DNA of 63,584 nt, filler included, from Reclinomonas americana ATCC 50394 (taxonomy: Eukaryota), in NCBI GenBank assembly GCA_048213135.1. It is 14 parts of 14 records of this genome, joined end to end, with 100 filler letters (N's around TTAATTAATTAA, not from the genome) between each part and the next. Parts side by side here need not be neighbours in the genome. Positions count along the whole stretch, not along the records: positions 19,202 to 26,475 come from AFZH01019654.1; positions 26,576 to 32,195 come from AFZH01019655.1; 12 more parts are not named here. One strand, given 5' to 3'. Every line of letters begins with the position of its first letter. Within the stretch, counting starts at the first letter, position 1. Position numbers and translations under genes: made by a program. Below the pieces are notes generated by a model that worked only from the letters and a program-made list of their open reading frames with translations, searched no databases and had not been told where the DNA came from. This document shows, piece by piece, positions 1,841 through 55,439 of the stretch.

Positions 1841-3170
1841 ATGGCCACCGAGGAACAAGTGTTTGTGAACGCGCTGCAGCTGCGTCGCGATCAGCGCAAC
1901 GCCATATTAGCGCGCACCGATGAGTTTGTCAAGGCTGCAGTCGAGTTCCTGGGCGACGCGGAAAACGTTGCGCGAGGGGCGGAGAGAAGCGATGCCTGGT
2001 TCGGTCCTCTCTCACTTGCTCACCTCTCTTCCCTCCTTTGTGTGTGTGTGATGCATCAGGTTGCCGAGGTGCGCAGCGCATATCGCGATGCGGTGGGTGC
2101 ATATCATCAGCAGTTGGCGTTGCATCGGCAGCGCGAAGTGCACGACGATCGACTGACGCGCGCGGCGTTGCGGACGGCGCCGGAGGAGCGCTCGGCGTCG
2201 GAGCGCATCTTTGTGGCCACGCACCAGCGACACGCAGAGTGGCGCGAGCTGCTGGCGAACAAGGAGCGCGAACTGGAGGAGCGACAGGAGACGACGCCGT
2301 ATCAGCGGCTGACGGTGGAGGAGCGCGATGCGGTGCGCCGGTTAGGCGAGTGGCGGCTGGAGGAGCGTAAGCGGGAGGATAGGCGGGTGGCCGACACGAG
2401 ATTGCGGCAGAGATTGATTGGTGGTGGTCCCGGATCGTACACGATGAGTACCGGAAACAGTGGTGCTGGTTCGACGCAAATGTGGACCGCGTCGTCGCCC
2501 ATGCAGTCCGGTGTCTATGTACCACCACCACTGCCGCCACCGCCACCGCTTTCGTTGGCCATGTCGGCGACCGCTGTCACCAGCACGACGCCGCAGGCGG
2601 TGGCCGGTATTACTCCACGCCGGGCGGCCTCGGTGTCGCACATTCAGCGATTACAGTCGGACCCGGGTTTCTCTGGTCACGATGCCATGAACGGGCACGG
2701 ATCGCTACAGCTGACGCCCCATCAGCAACAACAACACTATCAGCACTACCAGCAACAGTACCAGCAGCAGCAGCAGCTGCAGCAGCCGCAGGGTGCCTCT
2801 GTCGATCCTCTCCGTTTGCGATGTGTGGCCGAGACGTTTAGCACGCGGTTACCGTCGGCCGACTACTCACGGTTGCAGCTGTTGTTGGAAAAGGTGCGTC
2901 GACCTTCTCCGCACTCCCTCCCTTCCTTCCTCTCACACAATTTTTGTCACGCAGGGTGTTATTGGCGACGTGTTGGACATGTACCTGCGTGGTGAGGCTC
3001 CACCAGCAATACAAGCGCCGCCATCCAAGGGATCCGCGGCCATGGTAGCCATGGCCAACGGGTCATCGTCATCGTCGTCGTCGTCATCGTCATCTGCACA
3101 GCGCGGCGCGTGGAATGGCGTGACGCACCAGCCGGCCTCCAAGACGCTCACCGACCACTTCTTTCGCTGA
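1841..3170 (+). CDS. Hypothetical protein with coiled-coil, Pro-rich and poly-Q segments, spliced
   Basis: ATG 1841 (MATEEQVFVNALQLRRDQ), two GT-AG introns (~1999-2059, ~2894-2954), long open exons; no family recognised. Confidence 0.6.
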
Positions 3171-3296
3171 CAGCAGAGTTGGAGATGCCTCAATTTAGTG
3201 ACACGCTGTATGTGTATCCGTCCACGAGGGATAGCTGCAGGGATGGATGTCGCTCGCCCACCCATAAAACAAACGGCGACAGATTTTCACTTATGC

Positions 3297-3968: not shown

Positions 3969-6900
3969 ATGCTGCCTCTGGTGGCGGAGCAGCAACGGGA
4001 TCCGCTCGCTGCTGAGCAACCGCCAAATGAAGAGGTGGATCATGCGGTGCTGCTGCAGCCAGTGGAGGGATTGCTCCGCACGCAGGTCGGGAGAGTGAGG
4101 AAGAGAAAGTGAGCGCGATCACACAGTCTTTTCTCAATCCTCTCGTGTGTGTGCGTGGGCAGATCTGGAGGCTGATTCACACGGCCGCTGGTGCAGTGGG
4201 CGGGTCCACGTCGCGGGCGGCGTTTGCGTCGCGTCGCTTTGAGACTTCTGTGCGCATTTGCATCGTTGTTGATCATCAATCATCCTGCTTCTGCTCATTT
4301 GTGTCGAGCAGGTCTCGCTGCTGAAGGGTCTCCCGCAGCGCCGCATCTCGCAGGCGGTCAGTCAGTGGTGGTTCAACTCCTCCAAGGGCATGGTGTACGT
4401 TGAGTAGCGTGGAGTGCACAGATCGCTCACCCCGAATTGTGTATCTCATCTCAGTTGGTGCGCAGGATTGGTTGTACCTGACGACCGTGGCGTTGTCGGT
4501 GGTGGTGTACGTGTACTGCACGTACAACACCGATTCGTTGACGTTGCGTGTGTGCGTTTGGTGGTCACACGGGTGACGGGGTGTGTGCTGACAGAGTGGA
4601 ATGGACCAGATCATTGTGGCTGAGAATCTTGGAGTTGTACATTGCGACAGTGTTTGTGGCCGACTTTGTGTTGCATGCACTCATCGCCCGTCGCTTGTGC
4701 GTGGCGTGCTCCCGCTAGTTATCAATGTGTGCGCAGCATTCATCGCCTTTGTGCAGGCGACTGTTCTTGCTGAGCGTTACCGGCATTGGGGATTTCATCA
4801 CACTGTGGCCAGTGTTGCGTCGTAACTCGTTTATTGTTGCGTGGGGTGACAGTGTCCAATGCGTGTGTGTGCTGACGGCACAGGGTGCTGGTGTGGACAA
4901 CCGATGTGAGCGGCATTTGGGGTCTGCTGTGGCGACTGACCAGCGTCCCGCGGATTGTGCGATTCTCTCGCCTGCAGCGAGTGTTCCACAGAAGAGGCCT
5001 GGATATCGAGAGCTGTTGCGTCTTCCTGACTCTTCGGGAGTGACCACGTCTATAGTGTCACCCACTGACGTGCGCTTCTCGACACGCAGCCATCACTCTG
5101 CAGGTGCAAGTGCTGGCCTTCACCGTCGTCTGCATTCTCTTCATTGCTGCTGGTGCCTTTCAGGCCGGTTCGTTTGCGGGATTGTGTGTGTATGTCTCCA
5201 GCTTCCTCCTGTGCTGCTTACGTGAATACGACTGGCAGTGGAGATTTTCTGGGACGGCATTATCGTCACATTTCTACAAGCGGTGTACTTTGCGGTGGTG
5301 ACCATCGCCACAGTCGGTTATGGTGACATCTCGCCGGAGGTTTCTCAGCCCGTTTACCATCTCCGTGTTGTAGTGGTGGAGCGTGTCGACTAATATGTGT
5401 GCGTCGTTGGCGGCAGACCAATGTCGGACGCGTCCTCGTGGTGTTGTTCCTCCTAACCGTCATCATCATCATTCCGCTGGAGACGAACCGCTTGTTTTCC
5501 ATCATCTCCGAGACCAATCGTTGCGTGCCACGACCAAGTCGAATGCTCTGTTTTTCATTCTTGTGTGATTGACTGAGAGACGCGAATACAGGTTACCGCC
5601 GCAAAGCGGTAATACGGCGCGGTCATCAGCATGTATTGGTCACGGGGGATATCGGCACCGCCAACATTGTGCGCTTCACACGCGAGTTCTTCCACTCGGC
5701 ACACGGCACACAGCGCCTGCAATTGGTGTTCCTCGCTACTGTGAATCCGTCGACGGAGACGGAAGTTGTTGCGTGTGCGCGTGCAATCGCTGTCGTCGTC
5801 TCTCATCTCGCAGGAGTTAACTGAGCTGTTGGATTCTTGGCTAGCTTTTCTTCACGCATCCGCACGGAAACCTGATGCAGTACGTGCTGGGATCTGCTGT
5901 TTCGCCGGTCGATCTGCGTCGCGGTGCAACAGCAGACGCGGTAGCGGCATTCGTGTTTGTGGATCGACTGTCACCGAGGCTCGCCGACAGTGATGCGATG
6001 AACTTTCTCCGCGTCGCCGCCATTCGCAGTACCAACGACATTTGCCCCATATTTGCGCAAGTGACCTTGCCGCAAAACAGGGTGCGCTTGAGAGCCGGAG
6101 ATTTCCGTTCTCCCGCACTCCCGTACTCATGTGTTTGTCGCAGAAACACCTGTTGGCGGCAGGCGCCACTCAAGTCGTGTGCATCAACAGTCTCAAAATG
6201 GTTCCTTCCAGTTTCAAACGCCACCGATATGTATTTATTGCGATGCTTACTCGTGCTCCTTCATCTTGCAGAGCATTCTTGCTCGCAGCTGCCTGTGCCC
6301 GGGCTTTTGTGCATTTGTCAGCAATCTGATGAAATTCGACACCCCGTTCAGCCACTTGGACGGCGACAGCTGGGAGGAGGAGTATGGTTGCGTGTTGTTC
6401 GCTCGCTGTCGCTGCTCTGTCGTCGTCTCCTCATGCTGCTGGTGCTGTCACACAGCGCACGGTTACGCTCACGAGATTTACACCACCTCATGGCCGAAAT
6501 CCATGCACGGAGTCAGCTACGGCGATGCAGCATCGGTGCGTCATCCTTGCGTAATCTGCACATTCATACGTGCGCTTACGTGCGTGATTACGCACTGACT
6601 GCGACTCTTTGACGACAGTACCTTTACGCCAAGTACGCTGCCATTCTCCTGGCAGTCACCGGCAGCATTCGCGACCCGCAGAAGAATTACGTTGCCTACG
6701 TGCGTCGACAACGAAGCGCACCACTTGCCACCACACGGCTTATGAGCATCTCACTCACTCTTTGCATGTAGCGCACAATGGTTGCACCGCCTTCTACTCT
6801 CGTGTTGGAAGCCGGTTACAGATGCACGCTGATTGCTGCGGATGCCTCTGTCGCGCTGAGCATCGCGTTCGACAGCCACTTTGAATCCGTGAAGGGGAAT

Positions 6901-10297: not shown

Positions 10298-13200
10298 ATG
10301 CGGCAGCAACCGTTGATCAGCTCGCGTCGAGCGTTGACGAATCAGGTGTGTGTGCAAGCGTGTGGGTGCGTGAGAGAGAGAGAGAGAGAGGGATGGAGAA
10401 TGTGTGCATGTGCGTGCGTGCATTCATGTGATTGTGGGAAAGAAGCACACGTGTGTGTGAGAGAGATGACGGAGAGAGTATCAGCCTGGATGAATCACAC
10501 TTTTTTCTCTCCCAATCCCTCGCCCTCTGCTCCCCACTCTGGCTTGTTCTCTGGATCACCACCTCCCTTTCCCTCTCACAAAACACGTCAATGCACACCT
10601 CACACATCAATGTTGCGACAATGCAAGATTTGGCAAGTTGTGCGCTTTGCCGCTGGAGGAGTCGGAGGCCAGGCGAACCGCAGCTATGCTGGGCGTCGAG
10701 TCGACACATCGGTGCGCGTGCGCGTAGTTCCTCCTTCAAAAGCGGCCATTTCTTTTTGTTCTCAAAATGCGTGTCTCGCCAACAGGTCGCTCTTCTCGAC
10801 CTCCGACCCACCAGCTTTCAGGTGCGGCTGCGCAGGTTCATGGCGCATTCCACGTTTGGGTTCATCTATGTTGCGTGGTGCTTGGGTACTGTCGACGCGC
10901 CTGCTGCGAGGCTTGACACAGGCTGGTCACAGGATATCGTTTTGATGGCGCTGGCGCTGTGGGCTGTCATCCAGTACGTGTGGTCTACGTATGAGCCCGG
11001 CTACTATGAGTTTCGCAGTACCTCTGTGTGAAAGAGAGACGTCAAGTGAGCCGTGTTTTCGCTGTGAATCTCACCTCCACATTGCAGCATTACGTGGGTG
11101 CGGATTGTTGAAGTCTTCCTGGTGTGCATCTTCGGCTCCGACGTGGTGTTGCAGTTCTACACTGCAAGGCGGCGGTTCGTGTGCATGTATGTGAGTCGCA
11201 CACTGTGGTTGACACGCGCACTGAGTCACCATGGCACAGCTGGTGGTACTTGTCGACTCGAGGACTTGCCGACATTCTCAGCATTGTGCCCAGGTATATC
11301 TCACGCGCGCCTCTACACAATCCCCGCTCTTGCCCTAACACTCGTGAACACAGTGTGGTGTTCTTTGCTACGGGAAATCGCTCCGTTCAGCTGTACTTCC
11401 TGCGCGTGCTCCGCCTCCTGCGTTTGATGCGCCTGTTCCGCTTGAGCCGACGCCGCACGTTCTACACACGTCGCGATTGGTCCCAAAAATGTTTCGTGTG
11501 TTGCATCACGCTCACCTCATCTGTTGTGACAGCAGCGTTGTTGCTTATATTTCTACCCGCTTGCCGCGCACGTTGCAGCTGTGGCCGACGAACTTCTCAA
11601 GTTCGTCTTTGTGATCTTTTGCCTCATTTTCATCACCGCCGGTCTGATCCAGACAGGTTCGCGCAAAGGCCTTGACTTCTCTCTTAATGCCCAAGCTAAT
11701 GATTTGCTTACATGTGTATGCGTGTGTCACCTGTGCAGTCGAGGACGCTTTCGATGGCACGAAGATGACCTTCCTCCAGGCCGTGTACTTTATCGTCGTC
11801 ACTATTACGACTGTCGGCTACGGTGACTTTACGCCCACGGTTTGTCCCAACCCCCGTGTTGCAAGAAGCGTGCTGCTCTGGTCTGTCTCTCACGGCCATC
11901 TACGTATGGCATGCGGACAGACGGAGCTCGGTCAAGCAATCATCATTGTCTTCATTCTGACGGCCATTTCGCTGCTGCCGGTGTTGACCTCGCAGCTGTT
12001 GAATGTCATGGCTCTTACCAACAGTTACGCATTTAGCGTTCCATAGTGCACCTCTCTCTCTCTCTTCCCTTACCTGTGTATGTTTGTGTGTGCGCACGCT
12101 CGCGGNNNNNNNNNNNNNNNNNNNNNNNNNNNNNNNNNNNNNNNNNNNNTTAATTAATTAANNNNNNNNNNNNNNNNNNNNNNNNNNNNNNNNNNNNNNN
12201 NNNNNTGAGTTCGCGAGACGAGCGCGCCTGATGGCCATGCTACTCACTGTCGCGAAAATCACACAGAATGTGCTGGCACGCAGCTGCTTGGTTCCTGGGT
12301 TTGCCGTCTTCCTCAACAATCTCATGCGCAACGAGCTTCCGTTCAAGTCGTTCACCATGGAAGAGTGGCCTGCCGAATACTGTTGCGTCCATATGACACC
12401 GTCGTGGATACACACTGGCGACTCACCGCTGCGTCTCGGCAGGTCACGGCGCCGCGCATGAAATCTACACCACCGTGTTGCCAAAGACCATGGAGGGCGT
12501 CACTTTTGCCGAGGCTGCAGCTGTTGCGTGTGTGCGCTCTTGAGTGCAAAGTTCCTCTGTCTCATATTCGTGTGTGCCAGTACGTGTATGACAAGTTCAA
12601 CGCCATTCTGTTCGGCGTGAAAGGCTCCATTCAGGATCCGCGCACTGGCGTCGTGGCCGAGGTACGCGCTGTGATGCACTTGCAGTTTCACGAATTCAAT
12701 GGTCACCTGTGTGTGTGTGTGTCCTTGCTGCAGCGCTCGTTGATTGCACCACCACCCAAGCTAATTGTGCGAGCTGGGTTCAAGGCCGTGCTTATCGCGC
12801 CCGATGTGACGATTGCTTTGCAGTTGGCTTTCGATTCCGATGCTGAGTGGCTGGCCAGTACGACTACTCGCGTCCGTGCTCTCGCCAGAAAACTGCGACA
12901 TGTCACAGCGGATTTGGAGCGGAGACGACAACCAGATCGAGAACGGCGGCAGTCTCTTATTCGTCGACCGTCACTCGACCGGTTGCGGGAGGATGCCAGC
13001 GGGGCGTCTGCAGTTTTGCAAACGTCAATGTCGGCTCCACCCCCACTGCCGCCACCGCCTTTGCCACCAAGTGACGGTCGGCCTTCGCTTGTGTCACTGG
13101 TGTGTCAACGGTGTGCTCCTCCCTACTGTACACCCGGTGCTCATAGTTCATTGCCAGCTGTCGGAGGACAACCTGAGTGTGCAGAGTCTACAGTCTCGCG

Positions 13201-19060: not shown

Positions 19061-19240
19061 TGTGAGTCGTCTGTGGAGGGGGTGCGTATATGGGCGCACG
19101 CNNNNNNNNNNNNNNNNNNNNNNNNNNNNNNNNNNNNNNNNNNNNTTAATTAATTAANNNNNNNNNNNNNNNNNNNNNNNNNNNNNNNNNNNNNNNNNNN
19201 NCGTACGGTACCGAACGGACGGACGTAGTACGGTACGTAC

Positions 19241-19552: not shown

Positions 19553-21574
19553 TCACTCAACAGCAATGCAGTGTCGCATATCAAACTGCACCACGCGTGG
19601 ACGAAGCGACAAGCGACGTCCAGCGGTGCTGGCTGTGGGTGGCGAAGGCGCGTTACTGACCACCTGGTCAATGTCGAAACCAAAGGAGCAATCCTTGCGC
19701 GTCAACACAATCGGTGGCAACGACGTCGCCGACGACAGCGAAGACGACGACGGAACCACTGGTGGAGTTGGCGGCTGCTGCTGCTGTTGTTGTTGTTGCT
19801 GCTGTTGTTGCCGCTGCTGCTGCTGTTTCAGTCGCGCGACGGCGGCCGGGCTGCGAGGCCACGACGCCGCACTGCGAACGAGAATGCCGGTTTTTGGAGG
19901 ATCGGGAAGCGGTGGCATAGCCATCGAGGTCATTGCCGCTGCTCCACTAGCAGCACCTCTCCTCGCTCCACCTTCACCGTCGACTGAGCCGTGCGCCTCG
20001 CTAGAGGTCACGGAGCTTGTGGCGGCAGAAGAAGCAGACGTGTTGTGCGAATCGGTTCGTGCTGCAGTTGCCGTCTCTGCTTCCTGGTACGCGCCATCGT
20101 CTGCGTCCTCGGTCGACATGGCATCCTCCGAGAACGACGACGTCCCTGACTCGGTGGACGACAGGGACGGCGATCGCCGCACCAGCAGATTCAACTTGCC
20201 GCCACCATCGAGAACGGCCAGATCCTGCGGCGACAGCGAACACATGCCGCCAATCAACGACGCCAACAGTGGCGACGGTAATCGGCGGGTGGGCGATCCG
20301 GATGCAGCAGCCAGACCGCTGTCCACCGACGGTGATCGCGTGGCGTGCGGAAGCGAGGCCGAGCGACGCGATCGTCTGTGAGCACCACCGCACACGGTCA
20401 TGATTGTCAGCGCACATCGAGGAGTTGGAACTGCAGGATGCACATCCTACTCGGTCTTCGTTTCTTTCCCTACGACTGTCCCTCTTTCCTCCCGTCCTCC
20501 CCCTCCCCCACCCAGCGGCATGACAAACCTGGGTGGTGACTTGACACCTTCGATAAGCGGCGACGACCCTCCAGCCGTCGGCGCAGGCGCCGTCTCCGGC
20601 GATCGCACCCTCCGACGCTCCCGGTCCGCATCCTCACCCGACGACGACGACATGGCACCACTGCTCGGCGACGACGACGACGCCGACCAGGCGGCATGAC
20701 TGCCGCCACCGACGGCGGCAGTTGCGGTCGACACTTGCAATTGACCAAACGAAACTCGCGGACCCACCGTCGGTCTCCGCACCCCGATGCCCCCGCCCGC
20801 ATTCGTCCCAAAGATGAGCTCGTCGCCACCCCCTAACCGACCATCGTCGTCATCGTCATCATCATCATCGTCGTCATCGTCATCATTCCCACGAGGCTGA
20901 TCACCACCAACACCGCCATGACGATTCGTTGACAGGGGTCCAAACGTCGGCGGCGACAGCAGCGCCGGTGGCGACGACGAATCCGACAGCATCGACAATG
21001 GTGTAGTCGGCGACGACATGGACGACACCGTGGTGCTGCCGGAGCCCGCCGACTTGATGCGTAATTGGACACTGGCCACGGTGTTGCCACCACTCGACGA
21101 TAGCGACGACGGCGTGGAGTTCACCGTCGGCGTCGTAACCGCAGTGCCAGTGCTGGCACGACGAGCACCCACAATACCACCACTGTTACTGCCACTGCTA
21201 TTGCTGTTGCTGTTGCTGAGTGCGTTGTGGTGGCGGCGCGACATGACGCTGGCCGAACTGCCGGCACGTTTCAGACCGCGAGACACAACTGGTGGTGGCT
21301 GCTGTTGTGTGTCACTGGCAGCCTTCAGTCCCCCTCCCCCTGCTCCTGCTCCTGCTCCTGCTCCATGTGGTAATGAGGGCAACATGGAGTCGATGCCCCA
21401 CACAAGCTGCGCCGTGACCAGCATCGCGTCGCTGCTCTGTGGTGTGCTTGCGTGATTGGCCACTTGGTACTTGCGTGCTGTGCGGCGGCGACTTCCTCCT
21501 CCTCCGCCGCCGCCTCCGCCACCTCCGCTGCTGCTGCGACCAGAGGTGGCCGACACACTTGTGCGGCACCCCAT
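19553..21574 (-). CDS. Low-complexity Ser/Gln/Asp-rich protein with N-terminal MGC motif
   Basis: ORFs 20447-21574 and 19553-20443 join in frame via a GT-AG intron at ~20378-20529. Confidence 0.55.
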
Positions 21575-21815: not shown

Positions 21816-24800
21816 ATGACCGAGGTGGAATCGACCTTGTTTGGCAACGTGATCGTGCTGTCGCGCGCTGGCACCGAGGGTGCGGCGTTTCCGCTGGAGG
21901 ACCGCGAGTGCACGTTTGGCCGGTACGCTTGTTGTCTGTGTGCGTGTGTATGTGTGAGTGTGAGTGTTTGTTGACGACTTGGCGGGCTGCAGTGGCCCAT
22001 CGAGCGACATTCGCATTCAGCTGTCGACCGTGTCGCGGCAACATGCGCGCATCTATGTTGACGAGAAGGAACAAGTTGCGGCGCATGCTGCCCGTTTGCG
22101 GCGGGGCAGCACAGACTGACCAAAACACGCACACAGGTGTGGATTGAGAACTGCAGCTCCACGCAAGAGACCATTGTCAACGACGAGGTGATTCAAGGCC
22201 CAGTGCTGCTGAGCAACCTGGATGTCATCACCATCGCCGATCGCATGTTCCGCTTTGAAGGTGTGTCCCCACTGCTGACCGCCGCTACTCGCTTGCGCAT
22301 CGCCTCACGCCCATCTCAGCTGCACTCAAGAGCAAGTTGACGCCTGGTTCTGGCAAGAAGCTGGCAGTCGCCAAGCGCTCTCCATTCGCCGACAGCACCA
22401 ACATTGCGGCAAAGAGCGTGCACCCGGTGAATCGCATGGCCAGCGACGACACCCTGACCATGCCGCCGAAGAAGAGCCCGGCTCCCTCCAAGGCTCCTGC
22501 GGCCGAGGACCGCGAGAACGCCCGACCGGCCTCTGCCAAGAAGTCGGTAAGTGATGTCGCAAGCATGCCAGCTCACGTCCCCCGACCCATTCTCAAATGT
22601 TGTTGTGTGTCTCGCGAAGTTGGCCACTCCGTTGCGACAGGCGCTCGCGAATCGCCGCCGAGTCATTGAGGGTCACGACAGCAGCGTCGACATGTCGAAG
22701 AGTTGCGTCGCTGCCTCCCCACGCTTTGTGTCCGTGTTCACTGGCTCACGCACTGTGTGTGCGTGTGTGTGTGTAGGTTCCCAGGAGGAAGATTTTGACA
22801 AGCCAGAGCCGATGGTTGAGGAAGTGGCCGTCGTTGAGCCCGTGCCGCAGGCCGTGGCTCCAGTGCCAGTGCCAGAGTCGGTGATGGAGGAGAAGGAACA
22901 GGAGAAGGAGGAGGAGGAGGAAAAGTTTGTCGTTGAGCGCGTTCCGCCTCCCTCTCGCCTGATGACCCCGCTGCGCCGCGACATTGAGGCGCGACGCTTG
23001 CCGAGCGCTCAAAAGTCACGCGCGGTTGCCGCCTTTGTGGCACCGCAGTTCGAGGAGCGCGAGGCCGACCTGTTGCCGGTGGACGAGGACAATGACGATG
23101 ACGACGAGGAAATGGACCTCGTGCCCATTGCGGCAACGGCCAAGCCGCTGATGGAGGAGGACACGAACGGTGCGGCCTCTCATCTCATGTCTACGAGTCT
23201 TATTTTTTGATGCTCATCGTGTTCACTCAACCAGATTTCTCGTCGGTCATTCGACGCCTGTCCATGGACCTCGACGGCAGCTTTGCCGCCAATGAGGGTG
23301 CGTGTGTGTGCATTGCCTTGTCAACGAGTTGTGTTCCTGCACTCACAAGCATGCGCTGTAGAAATCGAGTCTGTGCGCGTGGAGGCCCCCAAGAGCCTGT
23401 TTGCCAAGATCAAGAAGCGTCGCATGACCGCCTCGGCCCTGCCCACTGCCTCTGTCACTCCGTCGGCATCCATCAAGAAGCCGAAGAAGTCGGCGGCCAG
23501 CACCGACCGCAAGAAGGCGAAGAAAGTGAAGAAGATCAAGCGCAGCAAGTCCGCCGCCGGCGCCGCCGACGAGGAAGACGAGGAGGCCGTGGCCGGTGCG
23601 TTATCAATGATAACGAACCGTCTCTTCCTCTACTGACTCACCTGTTAACGTCTGTTGTGTGCAGTTGGCGACGACTCCTTCACCCAGCGCGTGATCAATG
23701 CCAACCCCTCGTGCAGCATCACCCCGATGAAGCGATCATCGGAGAAGCAGCCGCCGCCAGAGTCGATTCTGCTCCGTTCTGCTGCCTCGGCTGCCGCCGC
23801 AGCCGCCATCATCACCCCTGGTCGCTTCAGTGAGAGTGGCAAGACGCCGCGGGAGCGCCGCAAGAGCGTGCAGTGGTCGGAGCGCCTCGAGCGCACCTCG
23901 CCGACTGTCCCCTGCGGCCGTCTCTCCGCCGTCTCCATCCTCGACGAGTCGGGCAACAGCCGCCTCTCGGTGGGTCAGCTGAGCTCCAGCGCTCCCGACC
24001 AGTCCATGGTTTGTAAGAATCGATGCTGCGCTGTGCTTCTATTGATCTGACATGACGGTGCGCAGGCGACGCCTGGACACTTTGTCGAGGGCGAGATTCC
24101 GGAAACCGACGAGCATGACTCCGAGGTGGAGGACGAGGAAGACGCTGAGCAGGCGACTGACGGTCCGACGGCCATGGAGACGGAAAGGTATACCAACGTG
24201 TCGTGTATGCATGTGGTGGTGGTTCTTTAAGTGTCCTCAATTCCACGGGCCTGCCACAGCGTGGAACCCCAGCGCCGCCTCAACACGCCGTTCAAGAATG
24301 AGCTGATGGCCGCGGCTACCAGCAAGACGCAGAGTCGGTACGTGTGTTTGTCGCAAGAGCAGAGTACGAGAGACTCGGTTTTCCTCACACGCTGCTTTCT
24401 CAGTGCCAAGCGCCTGCAAACTCCACTGAAGAATGAGCTGTTGGCTCTGGTGGCTCGCAAGCAGACAACAGTTGTCGCGACCGCCGAGCCCACCGCTGCC
24501 CCGTCGCCCGCGCCCCAGGCAGCAAAGGAGGAGGAGATCAAGTGAGTTGTCACCCATTACACGAATGCTTTGCTTTGTCTGCTCACTGCTTCCATCAGGC
24601 CACGACGGCTGCAGACGCCTCTGAAGAACGAGTTGGCCAATGCTGTGGCCAACAAGCGCAAAGCTGTTGTGCCGGCTCCTGCGGAAGCCGTCATGTGAGT
24701 GTTCTCTCTGCGACTCTCCCTCCCTCTCGCTTCAACGTACTCACTCGAAAATGACAGCAGCCAGCCACGCCTGCAGACTCCCATGAAGAAGGAGATCGCC

Positions 24801-27398
24801 GATAAGGCGGCCATGCGACAGCAGCAGCGCGAAGCCAAGCAGCAGCAGCGCCTGACCACTCCGGTCAAGGCGGAGCTGCAGGCCAAGGCAGCGGCGTTGG
24901 GTGAGAAGAAGCGTGCCCAGCAGGAGCCTGTGCAGCGACTTGCCACCCCCATGAAGCGAGAGATTGTGGCTGCCTCCGGACGCGTGCAGCAGAGCATTGC
25001 AGAGAAGCAGCAGGCGGCCGAGTTTCGTCGTGCACGGAACGCCTGAGATCCACGCGTGTTTCTTGTTCTCACTGCGTGCTTGTTGTTAGTCACCGTCTGC
25101 AGACTCCGCTGAAGCAGGAGCTGGCGAAGAAGAGCGCCGAAGTCAACAAGCAGCTGGCCGAGAAGAAGTTGCCGAACAAGCACATTGGCACGCCGCTCAA
25201 GTCGGAGCTCAAGAGTCGCAGCCAGGAAGTGCGCGAGGCACTGGACGAGAAGCGCATGTGCGTGTGTGTTTGACAGCGAAACTGCGTTCTTGCCCATCAA
25301 CTCTCTGACACAAATGGCACACTGCGCAGTGACGGCAAGCACATGTCGACACCACTGAAGCGCGAGCTCATCCAGCGCAGCGAGCAGTTTGTCGGCGAGA
25401 CGACGTACGTGACTTCCACGGCCAAGACCCTGGCGACGCCGCTGAAGCGCGAGATTGCCGAGTCGAGCAACCGCATGCGCGAGAATCGGTGAGTGTGTCC
25501 GTGGCTCCTCTTATCTAAATGCTTTTTTGCGCTCACGTGGTTTATTCGTGTGCGTGCAGGCCACAACCGGCACCGAAGGTTCTTTCCACCCCTGTGCGCT
25601 CGGAGCTGGTCGCATCGGCTCAGGCTCGTGCCATGGCCCGCCGACCAGTCACCGCTCTGCCGTCGCCGCTGCGCGAGGAGTTGAAGCGCGGCCAGTTTGC
25701 TCTCGCACCAGCGCCAAAGGTGAGAATGTGATGACGTGGCTTTTCCCGTGGAAACTCAAAGAAACCCAATGCACAGCCACAGGAAGCTGTGCAGGAGAAG
25801 GTGGAGGAAGAGGTCGCCGTTGTGCCATCGTCGCCCGAGGCTGCGAGCAACCAAGAGAATGAGGTCGCGGCTGACGATGAGGACGGTGAGGTGTTCTTCC
25901 GAGTCCGCAACAAGCGCAACTATGCGGATGTTGGTGAGTAACCGTCACTGTGTCTGCTGTTCATCGGTGTTTACTAATTCCTGCTTGCAGAGGAGGATCT
26001 GGACGACATCATGTCGCCGCCTGTCAAGAGCCCCGGCCGCAAGCGCCGTCGTCTGGGCACGCCGTCGGCCAAGTCGGCACCTGTCGCAATCAGAACAGCG
26101 CAGGGCAAGGTTCCGTCTGCATTCCCACTCCCCGCTCTTGTATCGCGCACCTGTCGCTGACGTACTGTTCTACGCAGCGCCTGACTGCACGCCGACGCAA
26201 GCTGGACGCTGCACCGGTGGCGGTGCCGCTGGCCAAGTTCGATCCCAGCCTGTTTGAGAATCTGCGCAATGGCGCCGCAGCGTCGGCTCGCGCCGCCTGG
26301 GTGCAGTCGCAAATGTCAAACGGCAGCAACGTGTTGCGTGAACTGGTTATAATGTGTTCAGTTCCCCCTTCCAGTGATGCTCACCCCCGTGCACAGAGAA
26401 CCGCGCTCCGCGGCCTTTACATTTGCCGAGCTGAAGGCTCTGAAGGCGGCAGCCGATGCCGCCGCCATGGCGCCANNNNNNNNNNNNNNNNNNNNNNNNN
26501 NNNNNNNNNNNNNNNNNNNTTAATTAATTAANNNNNNNNNNNNNNNNNNNNNNNNNNNNNNNNNNNNNNNNNNNNCGGCCCGCAGATGGCTCGCAAGTCG
26601 GCCACCCCACTGAAGAGCACCACCCCGCTGAAGAGCGCCACCCCACTGAAGAGCGCCACCCCACTGAAGAGCACCACCCCGCTGAAGAGTGCCACCCCGC
26701 TGAAGAGTGCGTCGACACCGACTCGTCCACCATCGACCAGCAAGCGCACTCGCGTCGCTCGCGGTGTGCAACAGACTGTTCCCTCGGTGGTCGTGGTGCC
26801 CCTCGGCTCCCACGCGCGCCTGCTGACGCCAATGGCCGACGATGCGTTCCAGGTGGAGTTTGACGAGCCCCCAATGCCACAGCCGGTGTTCGAGGCCGCC
26901 GAGCCGGAGCCGGTGGCTGAGGAGAAGCCGGCTCGCAAGGGTCGCCGCGCAACCATCTCCACCAAGAAGCAGGAGCAACCGGAGGAGGTGGAAGACGAGG
27001 AGGTGGAGCCGGCACCACGCAAGCGCGGAGGTCGCCGTGCCACTCAAGTGCCCGAGGAGCCGGAGGCGGTCAAGCCCAAGAGCCGTCGTGGCGCCGCTCG
27101 CCAGCCAGTGGTGGAGGAGGAGGAGGAGGTGGAGCCTGTCGCCGAGCCGATTGAGATTGTCGAGGAGCCACCGAAGAAGCGCGGCACCAAGGTCAGCGTG
27201 TATGTGTGTGTCTTCCATGCCCACTACTCTTTCTGACGCGCATGCTCCTTGTGCCACCAGCGCTCTGCGGTCGCTGAGCCCGAGCCAGTCGAAGTGACAG
27301 AAGAGCCCGCATCCAAGCGCGCCTCTCGACGCCGCACCGTGGCTCCCGCCGAGGTGCCCGCACCTGCCGCACGAAGCACTCGCTCCCGTCGCGCATAA
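21816..27398 (+). CDS. Ki-67-like protein: N-terminal FHA domain, PP1-docking motif, TP-rich internal repeats (spans gap 26476-26575)
   Basis: Exons 21816-21922, 21993-22074 and 22137-22260 encode VIVLSRAGTEGAAFPLEDRECTFGRGPSSDIRIQLSTVSRQHARI...IENCSSTQETIVNDEVIQGPVLLSNLDVITIADRMFRFE; RRKSVQW at ~23856; repeated RLxTP[LM]KxE[LI]. Confidence 0.8.
26595..26712 (+). repeat. 18-bp coding tandem repeat, about 6 copies of KS[AT]TPL
   Basis: AAGAGCGCCACCCCACTG-type units seen directly in frame. Confidence 0.9.
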
Positions 27399-31908: not shown

Positions 31909-32329
31909 ATGAAAGAGAAACTGTGGGACAACTTGGCTCTCATAGGCTCCTCCCTTTCTACACTCTCGTGCAGTTGAATTAACATGGGAGAGGGAGGCGC
32001 ATATGAGGAGGAGAGGAGAAAAAACGAGAGGAAAAAGTGAGGGAGACAACTGCACTGTGCAGCTGCAAGTCTCTCTCGATTGCTGCGCGGGAAAATGGTA
32101 AAGGAAAAAGCAGCGAACTGGTAAAGGGTGGAGAGTGTGTGTCTGGGCGTAACAAACAAAAGAACAAAAGAACAAAAAAAGCGGCGGGGCGGAGGNNNNN
32201 NNNNNNNNNNNNNNNNNNNNNNNNNNNNNNNNNNNNNNNTTAATTAATTAANNNNNNNNNNNNNNNNNNNNNNNNNNNNNNNNNNNNNNNNNNNNGGGGA
32301 AGGGGGAGGGGGGAGGGGGGAAGGTAGGC

Positions 32330-33374: not shown

Positions 33375-35399
33375 GCAGTACGCAACATCGGATCCGAGAA
33401 GACGGCAACAACCACGAGGCCGATGGTGAGCAGCAGGATGATCTTCGTCCAAATGCGGCCTGCGGGGGTGCACTTGAGCAAGAGAGAGCATGGAGGAGGG
33501 AGAGAGGGGAAGCAAGGGAAGGAAGGAGAGTGAGCAAGGAGAAAGGAGAGAAAGGGAGGCGAGAACGAGGGAAGATAGGAGAGAGGGAGAGGGAAAGGAA
33601 GAGGAGAATAAAGAGGGAAGAGAAAAGAAACTTGGCGCAAGAGAGAGACAGAAAAGAGGGAAAACAGCTCAAAGCACAGAAGGCACAGAGAGAGAGAAGG
33701 GGGGAGGGAGAGAAAGTGGGAAAGAGAGAGAGACTGAGAAATGAAAGGGGGAAGAGAAAAGAGAGATACGGCTCCTGGCACAGAAAGGGGTGGGGAGCGG
33801 AAGTGAGGGAGGGCGAGAGCGAAGGTGGACGGGAGAGAGAGAAGAAGAAGAAGAAGAAGGAGGAAGAGAGAGAGAGAGAGAGAGAGAGGGTGAGAAAGAT
33901 GATAAAGTTCAACCACGCAACACTTGCTCTGCACCACCGGTCCACCCTCCTCCTCGTCCGACTCGGATTCCACAGACTGAATGGACGCTGGCGGCGGAGC
34001 CTCCTCGGGCACNNNNNNNNNNNNNNNNNNNNNNNNNNNNNNNNNNNNNNNNNNNNTTAATTAATTAANNNNNNNNNNNNNNNNNNNNNNNNNNNNNNNN
34101 NNNNNNNNNNNNGGTCGCAGCCGCTCCCGACTGCACACGCAATGTGTGAGTTTGATGGAAGAAACAGAGTGGCAGGAAGAAGAAACACACAGACCTTGGC
34201 CTTCGAGCGCCACTTGTCAAAGACCTTGCGTTCCACCAGGCGCTCACGCTCTGCCGTCTTGGACGAAAGTCCCTTGATCACGCGGAACATGACCGAGCTC
34301 TGCCCGCAATCGTGTCAGCACACAAGACAGCGGAAGTTGGCGGCGTTGACACTCACAGTGTGCAGCAGGGCGGCAATCTTACGTCGGTGCTCCTCCTCGG
34401 CCTTGGCCTGCGCAATAAGCTTCTCCTGGTAGCCTGCGAGAGAGTGAAAGAGTGAGAAATGAGGCACGGTGAAGGTCGGCTTTCAAGCGAGCGCAACTCG
34501 AGTTCAGCACTTGGTACACAGAGTAGGCGATGAGGGCGACAAAGGCCACGATGAATGTCGCCAGTGCCCAGTTCTTCTCGTGCTTTGCGACATTCTGCTT
34601 TTCCTCATCGGTCTTGGCTTGCAGGTACTGTAAAGGCGACGAGTGGGTGGTGTGCGCGAGGGATGACTCACAAACAATGGCCTGGTACCTCAAAAGCAAC
34701 ACCTGTGCATCGAGAAACATGAGTCTTTAGATCATGAAGCATGACTGCGCTGAGCGCCACGAACCTTGGATGAGGAAGTAGATGCTGTGGGGAATCAAAA
34801 TGAATGAGAAAAAAAGCAACAGTATCAAATCAATTCATACTCGCAGACCAGGAAGTGGCCATGGCAATCATCGCTGTGATCTTGACATCGCGGTCGACGG
34901 TCGCTCCCGTTCCGCGCAGGCCTGTGGCAGCCGATGAGACACGTGAGACTCTCGCACTGGCGATGGAGGGAATGAGGTGGCACGCAACTCCATCCGCGAG
35001 TGAGCTTCTTGTCGATGCTGATGCCCTTCTCGTCCAGATCGCAGCGCGCGAGGATGAGACTGTGGCGCGATGCAGTGAGGTCGGAAGGGGGTATGGGGGG
35101 AAGGAGGGAGAAGGGAGAGGGAGGAGAGGGAGGGGGGAGGAAGAGAAGAGAGGGAGGCAAGAAAAGGCACTGAGAAGAGAATGGAGAGAGGGGAAAGAGT
35201 AGGGGAGAACGGGGACGAAGAGAGAGGAGGAGAAAGGGAGGAGAGAGATATGAGAAGACACAGAGAAAGAGTGACACATCCAAACACAGGCGCCTTGCTT
35301 TAACATGACAGTGTGAAGCTTGAGATCAGGTCCTGATGCAAGAGATATCGAGGCACGGAGAGAAACACGGAGGGAAGAGAGAGCATGTGTGTGTGGAAA

Positions 35400-37169: not shown

Positions 37170-38245
37170 TCATGACGATTTCGCTGCCTTTTGCGCGGCA
37201 TCGCTGTCGGCCTTGGCTTTCCGCACGTGCTTCACGATGCGATCGGCAATCTCCTCGGCGTTGAAGTTCTTGCCAAAGTAGTCGATGAAGCGGCCGTCGG
37301 GGCCCATGAAGTACATGATGATCGAGTGGTCGATGAGGAAGTCCTGTGTGTACGTGGTGAGAAAACGGGAGAACTGGGGAATCAACAGGGAGGCTCAACA
37401 TTGGTCTTCACGTCTTCGTCGGCGGGGATGCTAAAGTAGACGCGATAGGCCTTGGTGACGCTCTTCAGTTCCTCCATGGTGCCGGTGAGACCGACCATGC
37501 GCGGGTGATAACCTGCACACGAGTGTCACCACCACTCGTCTCGCGCACCATCGGATTGCGAGGAAGGACGCAACGAGTGACGTAGTCCTTGACGCGTTCG
37601 GGGGTGTCGCGCACGGGGTCCACGCTGATAAACACCGGCTGCACCACGGGTCCAATGGTGGCATCCACGCGGTCAATGACATGTCGCATCTTGTTCATTT
37701 CGGCGGGGCAAATGTCGGGGCATGCCGCTGGGGAAGGAGAAGGGGGGAGGGAGAGGAAAGAGGGGAAGGGGTTAGGGGGGAAGAGAAAGGAGAAGGCGAT
37801 GGGGGAGGATGGAAAGGGAAAGACGGAAGGGGGAAGAGAGGGAAAGGGTTACTAAAGGGGAAGAGAAAGGGGGAGGAAGCGGGAATAGACGGAGAAGGGG
37901 AAGAAGGAAGGAGAAGACGCAAGGGGAAGACGCAAGGGGAAGACGATGGGGAGAAGACGATGGGGGGAAGACGATGGGGGGAAGACCGAAGGGGGAAGAG
38001 AAAGGAGCAGGCGATGGGAGAGGAAGACCGAAGGGGGAAGACTGAAGGGGGAAGACTGAAGGGGGAAGCAAAGGGGGAAGACTGAAGGGGGAAGACTGAA
38101 GGGGGAAGCGAAGGGGGAAGCGAAGGGAGAAGCGAAGGGGGAAGCNNNNNNNNNNNNNNNNNNNNNNNNNNNNNNNNNNNNNNNNNNNNTTAATTAATTA
38201 ANNNNNNNNNNNNNNNNNNNNNNNNNNNNNNNNNNNNNNNNNNNN

Positions 38246-39600: not shown

Positions 39601-40755
39601 TGGGGGGAGAGAGGGTGAGAGGGAGGGAGGGGGAGGGGGGGAGGAAGGAGAGAGGGAGGGAGAGGGAGGGACGGGGAGAGAATGAGAGTGAGGAAGGGAG
39701 TGTATGTGTGTGCGTGCGTGTGTGTGTGTGTAATAGTGTGCGCAAGTGAGTGTCCATGCGTGTGTGTGTGTGTGTGTGAGTGTGTGTGTGTGTGAGTGAG
39801 TGAGTGTGTGTGTGTGTGTGTGTGTGTTGTGTGTGCNNNNNNNNNNNNNNNNNNNNNNNNNNNNNNNNNNNNNNNNNNNNTTAATTAATTAANNNNNNNN
39901 NNNNNNNNNNNNNNNNNNNNNNNNNNNNNNNNNNNNTTGTTGTTGCTCTACGAGCTGACATTTTTTCTCGCTTTTTTTCGTGATGTCTGAGTTTCTGGTG
40001 CTCACTGAAGATGGTGATCATCATGCAGCTGTGTTGCTGTTTGGATTAGTAAAGTTGTTGTTGTTCTTGCTGCAGCGAGCGTGCTTGACTTCACTTGTCC
40101 GATCGCAATATCGACAGCAATACGCCGATCCCAGTCACCGTCGCCACCACCTCCGCGACGCACAACTCTTGCAGATGCACTTCGAACAGACTCTCGTATC
40201 CCCCCTGTGCATATCATATCTGTCCCTCCTGTCTCTCCTCCACCACTGAATATTGAATCGATGTCCGATTGCAATATTTCACTCTCTCTCCCTCTCCCCT
40301 CCTCCCTTCCCCCCTCCCCTCCCCACCCTTCCCCTCCCCCTCCCCCACCACCACCACCCACCCTCCCCCACTCACCCACCACCCCACAACCACCGGGCCC
40401 TCCACGCCCCCTCCTCCCCTCGAGCTCACCTTCATGCAAGTGCGCGCAAATTTGAAACCGGACCAATGCTTTCCGTGTCCGACTCCCTCTCCCTCCCTCC
40501 CCCCTTCCCTCCCTCCCTCCATCCCTGCCACACCTCGCGATTCGCATGCATCAGAGCAGCCACATACTGCACAACTTCAGCCGATTTTGTGCAGTCAAGC
40601 GCGCGGACACCCGCGAATTCACGCCGAAATCGAGCGGGCCCGCACGCGAAATCGAGATCCACACCGCAATTTGAGTCGTGAGTCGGCAAGCATGAACGCC
40701 AATGCAGTGTGTGTCTCCCTGCTGAGACAAGACCACCACCTAACTCCAACAAACC

Positions 40756-44385: not shown

Positions 44386-45158
44386 ATGCTGGCGCCCTCC
44401 GGAACAAGCAGCTGGCGATCCACCAACAACGCCACCACCACCAAAGACAACAACAATAACACCAAAGGAGCATCGTTGTTGCCACAAAAGCAACCGCGTG
44501 GAGTCGGATGGGAGCGCTTCTGTGGCCACCTTGCCCACCAGCGACCGACAGTGAGTGAACGTCGTCTTTTCTCGTCGCAAGCACGAAAGAACATTGAAAC
44601 CAATCATCGTTGTGTGTGTGCGTGTGTGCAGTTGGGTCCTGTGTGGCTCCAATGGCTGCTTGCTGTGTTTGCGCGAGTGCAGCTGCTGGCAGTGGTGTTG
44701 AGCCCGCTGCTGTTCAGTCTCGGAGGAGCAGCGTCCACAGCAGCTTCTCAGTCGCTGACCACAAGAGCGCTACAATACCTGTACTATGTAGCCTCGTGGA
44801 CGCCATCGGTGCGTGTATATGTGAATGTCGCCGCAGGTCGACAACTGAGTACTGATTGTGGTGTGGATTTTTGCTATATGCAGACAATGGGTTCCGGACT
44901 GATGCTGTCAGTGTCGATTGCCGTGTGCATTACAATCGCGTTGGTAATTGCGCAGCTGGCGTTTGCGTATCGCCGATTGCGGCTTGTTCCGTTGCTGCAA
45001 TCGTCGCGCAATNNNNNNNNNNNNNNNNNNNNNNNNNNNNNNNNNNNNNNNNNNNNTTAATTAATTAANNNNNNNNNNNNNNNNNNNNNNNNNNNNNNNN
45101 NNNNNNNNNNNNTCTCCTCTCTCTCTCTCTCTCTCTCTTCTTCTCTCTCTCTCTCTTC

Positions 45159-45209
<51 letters not shown>

Positions 45210-48200
45210 TCCCCCCGGTTCCTCTCTCCCTCTCCCTATTCCTTTCCCCCGGTTCCTCTCTTTCTCTCCCTTCCCCCCTTTCCCTCTCCCTCACACTGCC
45301 GCAGAATCGCACTGGTGCATCAAGGCTGGGGCCAGTGTCACGTGCTGCTCTCGTCCCTGTGGAAGCACCTCTCCAGCGACGCAGTTGACAGTTGTGTGTG
45401 CCTCTACATTCCGCTGCAGTCTCCCTTGTCTCACACACACACACATTCGGCTTCAGCCGACAAGGTCTTCTCGCTGGCCATGTCGTTGCGCGAGACGCAG
45501 GCCGGGGTCAGCCGTCAGATTTACGAGCTGGTCGCCTCGTACCCCAACAATGCCGACGTTATCACCATTCTGGCTCAGTTCACCACCGACATTGTGCACG
45601 ACGAGACACTCGGAAGGCAACTCGACGAGATCGCCGACGAGCTCACTGTGGAGCGAGAGGCAAATATGGGAGAGCGCGAAGACGTGGCTCACCTGACGGA
45701 GATGGCGGAGACTCTCAAGGTTCTCATTTGTTGTGTTCCATGGCCAGCGCTAGCCGCCTTCCTATTCACTTTTTCGTGCCCCATGCAGCACCTGCAAGGT
45801 GTCATGCAGTTGGAGCACCATGTCAACGACAACCACGCCGAGGGCGCCGAGAGCAGCGACGACGGTTCGACAACTGACTCTGACAATCTCTCGGCGACGG
45901 CCGCGTCCACCGATGGTGACCAGCAGTCGCGCGCCGCCTACGCACTGGCGGCCGAATCTACGGATTCAGGCAGAGTGCGAGGCTTCTTGTCGCCCGTCAG
46001 CCGCCGACCGAAGGCTCCGTTCAGTCCCCGACCGTTTGCGGAAGAGGAAAAACAAAGTGGCATTCTCGCCAATGCAATAGCCGAGCGCGAGGTGTGTGTT
46101 TGTGTGCGCGCGCGATGAAAGTCTGTGCTGCGCCCGACTGATTCTCACCGTACGCTCTACAGTTGAGTCGCAAAAAGTGCGCCATTGACAAGACGCCGGC
46201 ACTTCGGTTTGCTACTGAATCCTCGTCTGCTCGCCTGACGGCCGGTATCCAGCGCCATGCCAGCGCGCGAAGTGCGACGAGTGCAGCCGGCAGGAAATCC
46301 GAGTGCGGCGATGCGTCCTCCGCTGGATCGTGAGTGATCTGCCACTCGCCACCGCTTCATCGTCGCTCAAGTTTATCGATTCACAAAATTATCCTCCTCC
46401 TCCTCCTCTCCTCGTGCAGACCGACTGGCTCGAGTGTGTCGGGACTGTCGAGCTCCACCTCTGGTTTCAGTGCCACCTCCAGCGCCATGTCAGCGTATCG
46501 CGATCTCATTCGCGGCGACAAGGTGCTCTCTCCACGCGCGATACAACAATGTTCTTGGTGTTTGCACACTAATTCGTTGTTGACGAACAGGATCCAGTTT
46601 CCGTACGCGCAACCTGGGGAGCGGTCGTGTTTACCTTGTTCACGCTGGCCGCTGTCTCCACGTGCTACGTCTTTGTCCTGCAGACCACCGACGACATGAC
46701 GGTGCTGACCGTGCGGACGGATGCTCTCATGGCGGTCCAGTTGCGTGGTTCACCATTGTTTGCCTGACTGTCGGATGCTGTACCGACTCAGAGTTTTTGC
46801 TTTTGTGTGCAGAGTCGGTCTCACGGGATCCCTGTACGCATCTCGTTCACTTCAGCGCACCGCCACGCTTTCTACTGCAGCTGATAAGGATCAGGCGGTT
46901 GCGACACTGCGGCATCAGCTCATAGCCAATGCAACAATGGCGGCAAGTGGACTGCGAAGTGTGACCACCGCCTCGATTGACGAGCTGGTGCATTTGTCGG
47001 GTTTGGTTGAACTCAAGGTGCTCTCGAGTCAGCCGACTGGCGGCTCTGTGGTGTACTCGGAGNNNNNNNNNNNNNNNNNNNNNNNNNNNNNNNNNNNNNN
47101 NNNNNNTTAATTAATTAANNNNNNNNNNNNNNNNNNNNNNNNNNNNNNNNNNNNNNNNNNNNAGCGTGCCGGCGTTGGACGCTGCCGTGGCCGCAGCTGA
47201 TACGTCGATGGTGAGAGCACGAGACTGCCACTGTTGTCCTTCTTTTCCTTTCTCTGCCTATTCCCGTTCACCTCCTTCGTCTACGACATCCTTATTCTTT
47301 CTCCCATTCGTCTCTTTCCCATTTCCTTCTCCTCCCCTTCCCCACTCCAATGGTGAGAGCACGAGGCTCCTGCTTCTGTTGTCGTCGTTGTCATTCTCCA
47401 TTTTCTGCCTACGTCTTCGACATCTTTCTTCTTTCTCCCATTCGTCTCCTTCCCATTTCCTTCTCCTCCCTGCAGTCATATTCGCACAAATCGACGGACC
47501 TGCTGCTGTCGGCTGGCATGGCTGCTCCTGATTACTTTTTCATGGCGGCCAACACGGCCAAGGTCATTGCACCGGCGCTGCGCGACGCGACAAGTTACCA
47601 CGTGGTGGATTCAAAGGACGCTGTCACCGCGGGTCAGCGACTGTTGTGGATCCAGTGTGGGGCCGCCGTGGGGTGCGTTGTGCTTTGTTCTTTCGCCGAC
47701 TTGCCGACGTACTAACAATCCTCTCGTCTCTTGCAGAGCCCTGCTGCTGTTCTTCCTGGCAGTCTTTGTGCCCAGCATTCGCATGTTGTTTAGGAAAACG
47801 CGTACTGGCGTGGAGGCCTTGCTCACATTGCCGAAGAAGAATGTGCGGAGTATGGCGCAGGATACGCGAGCCAAGTTGATTGATTACATGCAACACCACA
47901 GCGATGGCGCGATGGTACGTTTTGCACGTTGCGCAATCGACTGTTCCTGCCTCACGCCTCGTTCATGCAGCCTTCGACACTCGCTACTCGACAACGGTAC
48001 TCGCCTGCCGCGTGCTCTCGGCTGGACTGGCAGTTCCTGTCATCTGTGTCCTTTCGCATGTTTGTCACGGTCTCGGTGGCTGCGATTGTCATGATTTTGT
48101 TGTGGTACGTCGGTAGCAGGGCAGCAACCACACGGCAGCGCAGTGTGTGCTTATCGCCAGCTTGTCGCAGTGTGACGGCACTTATTGCGATTCGCGAGTC

Positions 48201-52377: not shown

Positions 52378-52433
52378 TAAAGTCGTACCAAATGTGTCCT
52401 GCCTCCCACCCAATCAACAACAACGCCAGCTAG

Positions 52434-52797: not shown

Positions 52798-52974
52798 NNN
52801 NNNNNNNNNNNNNNNNNNNNNNNNNNNNNNNNNNNNNNNNNTTAATTAATTAANNNNNNNNNNNNNNNNNNNNNNNNNNNNNNNNNNNNNNNNNNNNGAG
52901 AAAAATATGTGCAGTCTTCAGCTTGAATTGTTCACGGCGTTGGTGGTCTGCGCATGGCGTCGCGGAGGAGAAAG

Positions 52975-55170: not shown

Positions 55171-55439
55171 GCACGTGGTGCGTGACAACTTTTCAACACG
55201 AAAGACACACACACGCACACACACCTATGCACACATANNNNNNNNNNNNNNNNNNNNNNNNNNNNNNNNNNNNNNNNNNNNTTAATTAATTAANNNNNNN
55301 NNNNNNNNNNNNNNNNNNNNNNNNNNNNNNNNNNNNNACACACGCAGTCGCGGCCTACCACACCGACGAAGGGAGGATTTGACCATCTAGTGGGACAGAC
55401 AAGATTTGGCGCGAATCCATGAACTTCTCTCTTCTTTCA

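Follow-up and report, generated by a model that had tools for sequence, protein, structure and literature searches.

A candidate Ki-67-like gene with a Ki-67-type FHA domain in Reclinomonas americana

Introduction

For a long time Ki-67 was regarded as confined to vertebrates; the Pfam family PP1_bind covers both Ki-67 and RepoMan (CDCA2), the latter a protein not known to have an FHA domain. The subject of the present work is a gene with Ki-67-like features at positions 21816–27398 of a 63,584-nucleotide stretch of DNA from Reclinomonas americana ATCC 50394 (GenBank assembly GCA_048213135.1), the whole of which is called the window below, and we describe how far the protein that it encodes resembles the known members of the family.

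In human Ki-67, the available part of one source gives the layout as an FHA domain, a motif for protein phosphatase 1 (PP1), a charged patch at residues 496-681, repeats at 1003-2929 and an LR domain at 2930-3256 (PMC13144362). According to the available part of Remnant et al. 2021 (PMC8354752), all Ki-67 orthologues have kept the RVxF motif, and RepoMan shares the PP1-binding module with vertebrate Ki-67. As to more distant organisms, InterPro holds a separate Ki-67 FHA entry with >2000 eukaryotic proteins, and Haider et al. 2026 (bioRxiv 10.64898/2026.06.18.733134, cited throughout from the part available) used it to find Ki-67 homologues in Capsaspora, Monosiga, Thecamonas, Dictyostelium, Hondaea, several fungi and many invertebrates. 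According to that preprint, these homologues share an N-terminal FHA domain, disorder, charge, S/T-P sites, repeats and, in most cases, a PP1 motif at the level of a regular expression, and outside the FHA domain their sequence is not conserved.

An earlier reading of the locus, made from the sequence alone (the sequence-only reading), had called its architecture Ki-67-like and had taken Ki-67 to be usually described from animals. The latter statement is out of date, protist and fungal homologues having been reported (10.64898/2026.06.18.733134). Relatives of Ki-67 outside the vertebrates were already described in 2026, and the locus is a further example of them, not a discovery.

Results

Homology of the N-terminal FHA domain of the encoded protein with that of Ki-67 is well supported by the sequence comparisons, and no other FHA family of solved structure comes to a comparable level. 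The FHA sequence given in the sequence-only reading is present letter for letter, but only once exons 1–3 have been spliced, and the human Ki-67 residues that it gave for comparison match those of PDB chains 2aff and 1r21 wherever HMMER produced an alignment; counted by hand over the aligned stretches, identity to the human domain is 13/24 in exon 2 and 22/39 in exon 3. Both exons match the generic Pfam FHA family (E 5.6e-5 for exon 2 and E 6e-4 for exon 3). Searched against the PDB (177,635 distinct sequences, E ≤ 10), exon 2 (27 aa) and exon 3 (41 aa) each had as sole matches the two human Ki-67 FHA sequences, at E 0.0075 and E 7e-6, respectively.

When exon 3 was scanned with HMMER against 1.84 billion representatives, three proteins reached E ≤ 0.001, namely P0001, P0002 and P0003. 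The last of these is a Coregonus fish protein of 2148 aa, which carries Pfam FHA and PP1_bind domains and whose near relatives are named Ki-67. In a search seeded with its FHA domain, 656 of 696 candidates reached E ≤ 0.001; the 120 that were listed (P0003-P0122) are all teleost, most of them named Ki-67, and are the teleost Ki-67 proteins referred to below. When residues 1–97 of P0003 were used as the query against the PDB, 41 distinct sequences were found at E ≤ 10, a control confirming that other FHA domains are detectable. Human Ki-67 scored 117.8 bits with this query and the spliced window FHA domain 74.1 bits, with residues 3 to 97 aligned, whereas the other 39 PDB sequences, which include MDC1, GarA/OdhI, Rad53, CEP170, EmbR, CHFR, Kanadaptin, KIF13B and Dun1, scored 32.7 bits or less. 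A teleost Ki-67 FHA profile, made from 77 distinct N-termini, gave 72.7 bits on the window, and the window domain is 43–51% identical to the teleost Ki-67 FHA domains over ~96 aa. Of the phosphothreonine-binding residues, the G-R pair, the S-x-x-H motif and the Asn of V-N are kept.

The sequence-only reading had left it open whether the protein is a deep homologue or a convergent one, and had proposed a reciprocal FHA comparison; in the PDB, that comparison favours Ki-67 in both directions, from exons 2 and 3 and from the fish query, and of its two options homology is well supported for the FHA domain and convergence is very unlikely. A likeness that arose by convergence or chance, in a protein unrelated to Ki-67, would draw on nothing beyond the general abundance of FHA folds, and it would have to account for the difference in bit score from the other FHA domains of the PDB, for an identity that runs end to end, and for two exons that independently match Ki-67 only. 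We regard it as extremely improbable.

The best true match to exon 3 in the representatives was P0002, an unnamed 77-aa fragment from an ENA source (36 bits, 22/42 identical). Its similarity starts at Q/VW, which is the boundary between exons 2 and 3 in the window (22137), and this suggests, from the alignment, that the two share an intron position; unlike the window protein, P0002 is a fragment only, and continues into TPKK-type repeats. As no true representative scored above 36 bits with exon 3, the window protein is not in the collections searched, and word-based protein searches with exon 3 and exon 8 found nothing at E ≤ 0.01. A search of the ESM Atlas with exon 3 gave generic FHA clusters only, without taxa. 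P0001, a protein of 4490 aa that stood in the top row of the scan (84.2 bits, E 4.5e-20), was rejected as spurious: it is repetitive and has no aligned stretch, its score being summed over many weak repeat matches, a type of false positive to watch for with short queries. We also observed that P0003 has a second, near-identical Ki-67 FHA domain at ~aa 1036-1117, apparently duplicated when that record was assembled or annotated.

The gene itself is real. Its model was built by reading the three forward frames together with the sequence, the locus not being one single open reading frame (ORF), and all 20 introns are GT-AG, 19 of them 57–72 nt long and one 238 nt. The spliced model runs through 1337 codons without an in-frame stop, GC content at third codon positions (GC3) is 0.77 in the coding sequence compared with a GC content of 0.54 in the introns, and retention of an intron leads to a stop or a frameshift in 18 of the 19 introns tested. 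The encoded protein has at least 1337 aa, of which 1087 precede an assembly gap inside the gene and 250 follow it. The short, uniform introns and the GC content indicate only a compact, non-vertebrate eukaryotic genome.

The gap is one of 13 identical 100-nt blocks, each consisting of 44 N, TTAATTAATTAA and 44 N, and the window is thus a chain of 14 contigs (~1.6–12 kb) joined by a six-frame stop linker; because of this, the order and orientation of contigs across the joins are not guaranteed. The parts on either side of the gap are likely to be one gene. Exon 20 (26397–26475) stays open as far as the gap; on the far side the same strand is open from the first base onwards, and the TPLKS copies with which this part begins have the TPLK core in common with the units before the gap. 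If instead the FHA/TPLK-repeat gene ended in the gap, and the ORF beyond it were a separate gene or a misplaced contig, the 13 joins and the presence of an ATG at 26586, 10 nt past the gap, would be in keeping with such a fusion of two genes. The two open ends on one strand and the shared TPLK core count against it, as does the 18-nt tandem repeat beside the gap, a plausible cause of a break in the assembly, and we consider a fusion quite unlikely. We treat the two parts as one gene in what follows.

After the FHA domain, from residue 105 to the end, the sequence-only reading had claimed a charged disordered region rich in TP, and the composition bears this out: 32% of residues in this intrinsically disordered region (IDR) are K, R, D or E, 67% are disorder-promoting and 2.2% are aromatic. 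The whole protein has an isoelectric point (pI) of 9.09, a net charge of +15 and 31% charged residues. AlphaFold2, run on the single sequence of the 205-aa post-gap exon, gave a mean predicted local distance difference test score of 54.9 and a predicted template modelling score of 0.14, with almost no secondary structure, a prediction that fits disorder and is weak evidence for it. The protein contains 35 [ST]P sites, compared with 17.2 ± 3.7 in shuffled sequences, and 23 sites of the full cyclin-dependent kinase (CDK) consensus [ST]Px[KR], compared with 2.9 ± 1.7 and a maximum of 10 in 2000 shuffles. The density of one [ST]P per 38 aa may be set beside the median of one per 27.8 aa in the 120 teleost Ki-67 proteins and the one S/T-P per 35 aa stated for human Ki-67 in the available part of the preprint (10.64898/2026.06.18.733134). 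Phosphorylation of all of the S/T-P sites would, by computation, leave the protein with a net charge of about -55 in place of +15.

Many of these sites lie in an array of 12 TP[LFMV][KR]xE[LI] units, spaced 23–46 aa apart and mostly 25–33 (Table 1). Exons 10–15, which lie within this array, are all of phase 2-2 and each measure a multiple of 3 nt, as tandem exon duplication would be expected to leave them. A Pfam match of DUF963 to the TPLKS tandem repeat after the gap (E 5e-6) was set aside as a low-complexity match, not a family assignment. The Lys-rich patch that precedes the array resembles the charged patch of human Ki-67 (aa 496-681) by analogy only, and matches Pfam HMG14_17 weakly (E 0.016, below the cut-off). 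In exon 18 there is a run resembling a nuclear localization signal (NLS), RKRRR, and exon 19 has a second NLS-like run, RRRK, at aa 1014; judged by these motifs, the protein would be targeted to the nucleus.

Towards the C-terminus, acidic V/E/P spacers alternate with basic units. The basic C-terminus that had been read from the sequence is found in the last 27 aa (net +8) but does not extend to the last 130 aa, which carry a net charge of only +2 in alternating acidic and basic blocks. In a single BLASTP comparison of the post-gap exon with P0003, 'EKPARKGRRAT...PRKRGGRRATQVPE' aligned on 'EKPKRGGRKT...KPKRGGRRTKQDPE' with E 0.003. The pattern [KR][KR]G{1,2}R[KR] occurs in 116 of the 120 teleost proteins, in a median of 5 copies, and 590 of the 591 teleost copies lie within the last 40% of the protein. 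The window protein has two copies, at aa 1207 and 1236 of 1337 (0.90 and 0.92 of the length), with looser copies of the unit at aa 1257 and 1287; shuffles of the window protein contained 0.014 copies on average, and none of 5000 contained two or more. A fish unit profile, made from 381 distinct units, gave 6.0 bits on aa 1195–1231 compared with a maximum of 4.8 in 500 local shuffles, and its whole-sequence score was not above the shuffles, 390 of the 500 having reached it. We found no printed description of the C-terminal motif in a literature search that was narrow on that point. The likeness to fish Ki-67 in this region is a lead, not a finding, and is weak.

Several results weigh against placing the protein in the Ki-67 family, and it is convenient to take them together. 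Within the FHA domain, exon 1 alone has no PDB match at E ≤ 10, and Gln replaces the conserved Asn of the S-T-N loop, a difference from vertebrate Ki-67 that is shared by the fragment P0002 and may alter phosphopeptide binding. The PP1 element proposed in the sequence-only reading, RRKSVQW, is present as a sequence, but as a PP1 motif KSVQW is not above chance, because 49% of shuffled disordered regions contain at least one RVxF-type match. Pfam PP1_bind matched no exon at E ≤ 1, the control P0003 giving E 1.8e-12. A profile of the fish PP1 region, built from 43 distinct contexts in the 77 of the 120 fish proteins that have a KRKRV[ST]F-type site, scored below 0 on the N-terminal part of the window protein and 2.6 bits on the C-terminal part, where there was no real alignment. 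K167R, the Pfam domain of the vertebrate repeats, likewise matched no exon at E ≤ 1, and a profile of the 12 window units, applied to every sixth of the 120 fish proteins (20 in all, only 6 of which gave any reported domain), had a best domain of -1.1 bits compared with a maximum of 2.2 in local shuffles. The ratio of Arg to Lys (R/K) is 1.00 compared with 0.42–0.77 in the 120 teleost proteins, a low ratio being listed as a family trait in the available part of the preprint (10.64898/2026.06.18.733134); the high GC3 may be the reason for this difference. Finally, the C-terminal 250 aa lie past an assembly gap in the 14-contig chain, and the C-terminal likeness is weak, concerns a motif picked after both sequences had been seen, and was measured on comparators that are all teleost.

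Against the PDB, exon 8, which encodes KSVQW, had chance-level matches only (uL29, a potassium channel with 'RRKSLQW', and glutathione S-transferase), with none to the PP1 complexes of Ki-67 or RepoMan. We also considered RVPPPSRLMTPLRRD (aa 232–257) as a counterpart of the LPPxSPL part of the fish PP1 region, and rejected it on its negative profile score. PP1 recruitment through KSVQW is a possible step that these results leave unsupported.

The same results bear on the view that homology is confined to the FHA domain, in which case a Ki-67-type FHA domain would be joined to a lineage-specific disordered region with another job, such as that of a nucleolar or ribosome-biogenesis scaffold or of a CDK-regulated adaptor, and the protein would neither work at the chromosome periphery nor recruit PP1. 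The unmatched PP1_bind and K167R domains, the chance level of KSVQW, the lack of sequence relationship between the window repeats and those of vertebrate Ki-67, and the R/K ratio outside the teleost range are all compatible with it, and the available part of the preprint reports no sequence conservation outside the FHA domain and no predicted NIFK binding for some distant homologues, e.g. Capsaspora (10.64898/2026.06.18.733134). The order of the parts and the bulk properties, however, fit the description of the family (N-terminal FHA domain, basic pI, S/T-P density, charge reversal and repeats), and the C-terminal similarity to fish Ki-67, weak as it is, is consistent. We consider homology of the FHA domain alone unlikely, though it is the likeliest of the alternatives.

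For the architecture as a whole, the Ki-67-like order claimed in the sequence-only reading is retained in the FHA domain, the positive patch, the CDK-site repeats and the mixed basic and acidic C-terminus, whereas the PP1 element is a chance-level match and the repeats are not of the K167R type. From its sequence, the protein is Ki-67-like in the broad sense; searches for PP1_bind and K167R both gave no match, and for that reason it does not count as an MKI67 of the vertebrate type.

Elsewhere in the window, a Pfam scan of 16 long ORFs gave an adenylate/guanylate cyclase catalytic domain in ORF 51387-52433 (+), with E 4.5e-19, and a match to TPR_TmcB just under the cut-off in ORF 45069-46118 (+), with E 4.9e-6; these two could belong to a single large cyclase gene with many exons that runs across several contig joins. 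ORF 5845-6612 (+) had a weak match to the Slo-like RCK domain of potassium channels (E 2.9e-4, below the Pfam cut-off). Directly upstream of the Ki-67-like gene lies an ATG-initiated ORF of 375 aa, 20447-21574 (-), of very low complexity, with poly-G, poly-D and S-rich runs, which could be either a neighbouring gene transcribed divergently or GC-rich non-coding sequence. Rfam gave no RNA family in the window.

Table 1. Features of the Ki-67-like gene and contig joins of the window (positions count along the whole window)
Feature	Position	Strand	Details
Whole gene model	21816..27398	+	20 exons before the gap and 2 after it; TAA stop 27396-27398
Ki-67-type FHA domain, aa 1-104	21816..22260	+	exon 1 21816-21922, exon 2 21993-22074, exon 3 22137-22260
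Lys-rich positive patch, aa 339-398	23388..23567	+	net +19 in 60 aa; ~75 aa upstream of KSVQW
KSVQW, aa 474-478	23862..23876	+	single match to [RK]-x(0,1)-[VI]-{P}-[FW]
Array of 12 TP[LFMV][KR]xE[LI] units, aa 572-906	24260..25719	+	exons 10-16
Exon 18, NLS-like RKRRR (aa 986)	25991..26109	+	flanked by SP/TP sites
Assembly gap inside the gene	26476..26575	.	44 N, TTAATTAATTAA, 44 N
18-nt tandem repeat, 5.9 copies	26601..26707	+	encodes [AT]TPLKS six times; in the post-gap part
Acidic V/E/P spacers alternating with basic units	26898..27395	+	RKGRR 26934-26948, KRGGRR 27021-27038
100-nt blocks 1-7	12106-12205, 19102-19201, 26476-26575, 32196-32295, 34013-34112, 38146-38245, 39837-39936		
100-nt blocks 8-13	45013-45112, 47063-47162, 52798-52897, 55238-55337, 58519-58618, 60947-61046		

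Discussion

Compared with vertebrate Ki-67, as represented by the human FHA structures 1R21 and 2AFF and the teleost proteins, the window protein has the same subtype of FHA domain at its N-terminus, is likewise long, basic, disordered and rich in S/T-P sites, has a positive patch in its N-terminal third, and combines internal repeats built on CDK sites with C-terminal [KR][KR]G(G)R[KR] units set between acidic spacers. It differs in having neither a PP1_bind domain, that is, an RVxF motif with its conserved flank, nor K167R repeats. Its own repeats are short and spread over 7 exons, unlike the repeat region of vertebrate Ki-67, which the available part of one source places in one exon (PMC8354752). 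It is also shorter, at no fewer than the 1337 aa of the model, than human Ki-67, for which domain coordinates reach aa 3256 in the part of the source available (PMC13144362). The homologues of Haider et al. 2026, taken here as those of Capsaspora, Monosiga, Thecamonas, Dictyostelium, Hondaea, fungi, Ciona and Drosophila, are like the window protein in having a Ki-67-type FHA domain at the N-terminus, a charged and largely disordered chain, internal repeats and S/T-P sites that reverse the charge when phosphorylated, a comparison made by their description in the available part of the preprint; their PP1 motif at the level of a regular expression has its counterpart here in KSVQW, at chance level.

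Taken with the points that weigh against it, the evidence leads us to favour, with some reserve, the reading that the gene probably encodes a Ki-67-like family member of a non-vertebrate eukaryote with a compact, intron-rich genome, and that the protein would, by analogy with Ki-67, join a phospho-reader to a CDK-switched brush and a basic anchor. In such a protein, the FHA domain would dock on a partner bearing phosphothreonine, e.g. a NIFK-like nucleolar protein, and nuclear entry would depend on the RKRRR and RRRK runs. Retention of the protein on DNA or chromatin could fall to the [KR][KR]G(G)R[KR] units of the C-terminal part together with the basic tail, with the long disordered middle extending outwards as a brush. 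Phosphorylation of the ~35 S/T-P sites by mitotic CDK would then flip the net charge of the protein from +15 to about -55, and this flip might switch its behaviour at the surface of the chromosome or the nucleolus.

We put forward more tentatively, and with some doubt, the idea that conservation reaches beyond the FHA domain. The C-terminal unit, P-x-[KR][KR]-G-(G)-R-[KR] preceded by an acidic V/E/P spacer, could be an inherited chromatin-anchoring motif, in which case the three-part design would predate the vertebrates, and possibly the animals, and the brush would have been built anew here as phase 2-2 exons, each with a TPLK CDK site, were duplicated in tandem.

When the machinery of the chromosome periphery and the nucleolar rim arose can be better judged from the occurrence of Ki-67 in distant eukaryotes, a point already in print (10.64898/2026.06.18.733134). 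To this, the present locus adds one more lineage with a well-preserved FHA domain, at 43–51% identity to those of fish, and a clear example of a disordered middle built of CDK-site units by exon duplication. It also adds a lead, in that the basic motif of the C-terminus may be conserved in sequence; if this is true, the motif would be a testable chromatin anchor.

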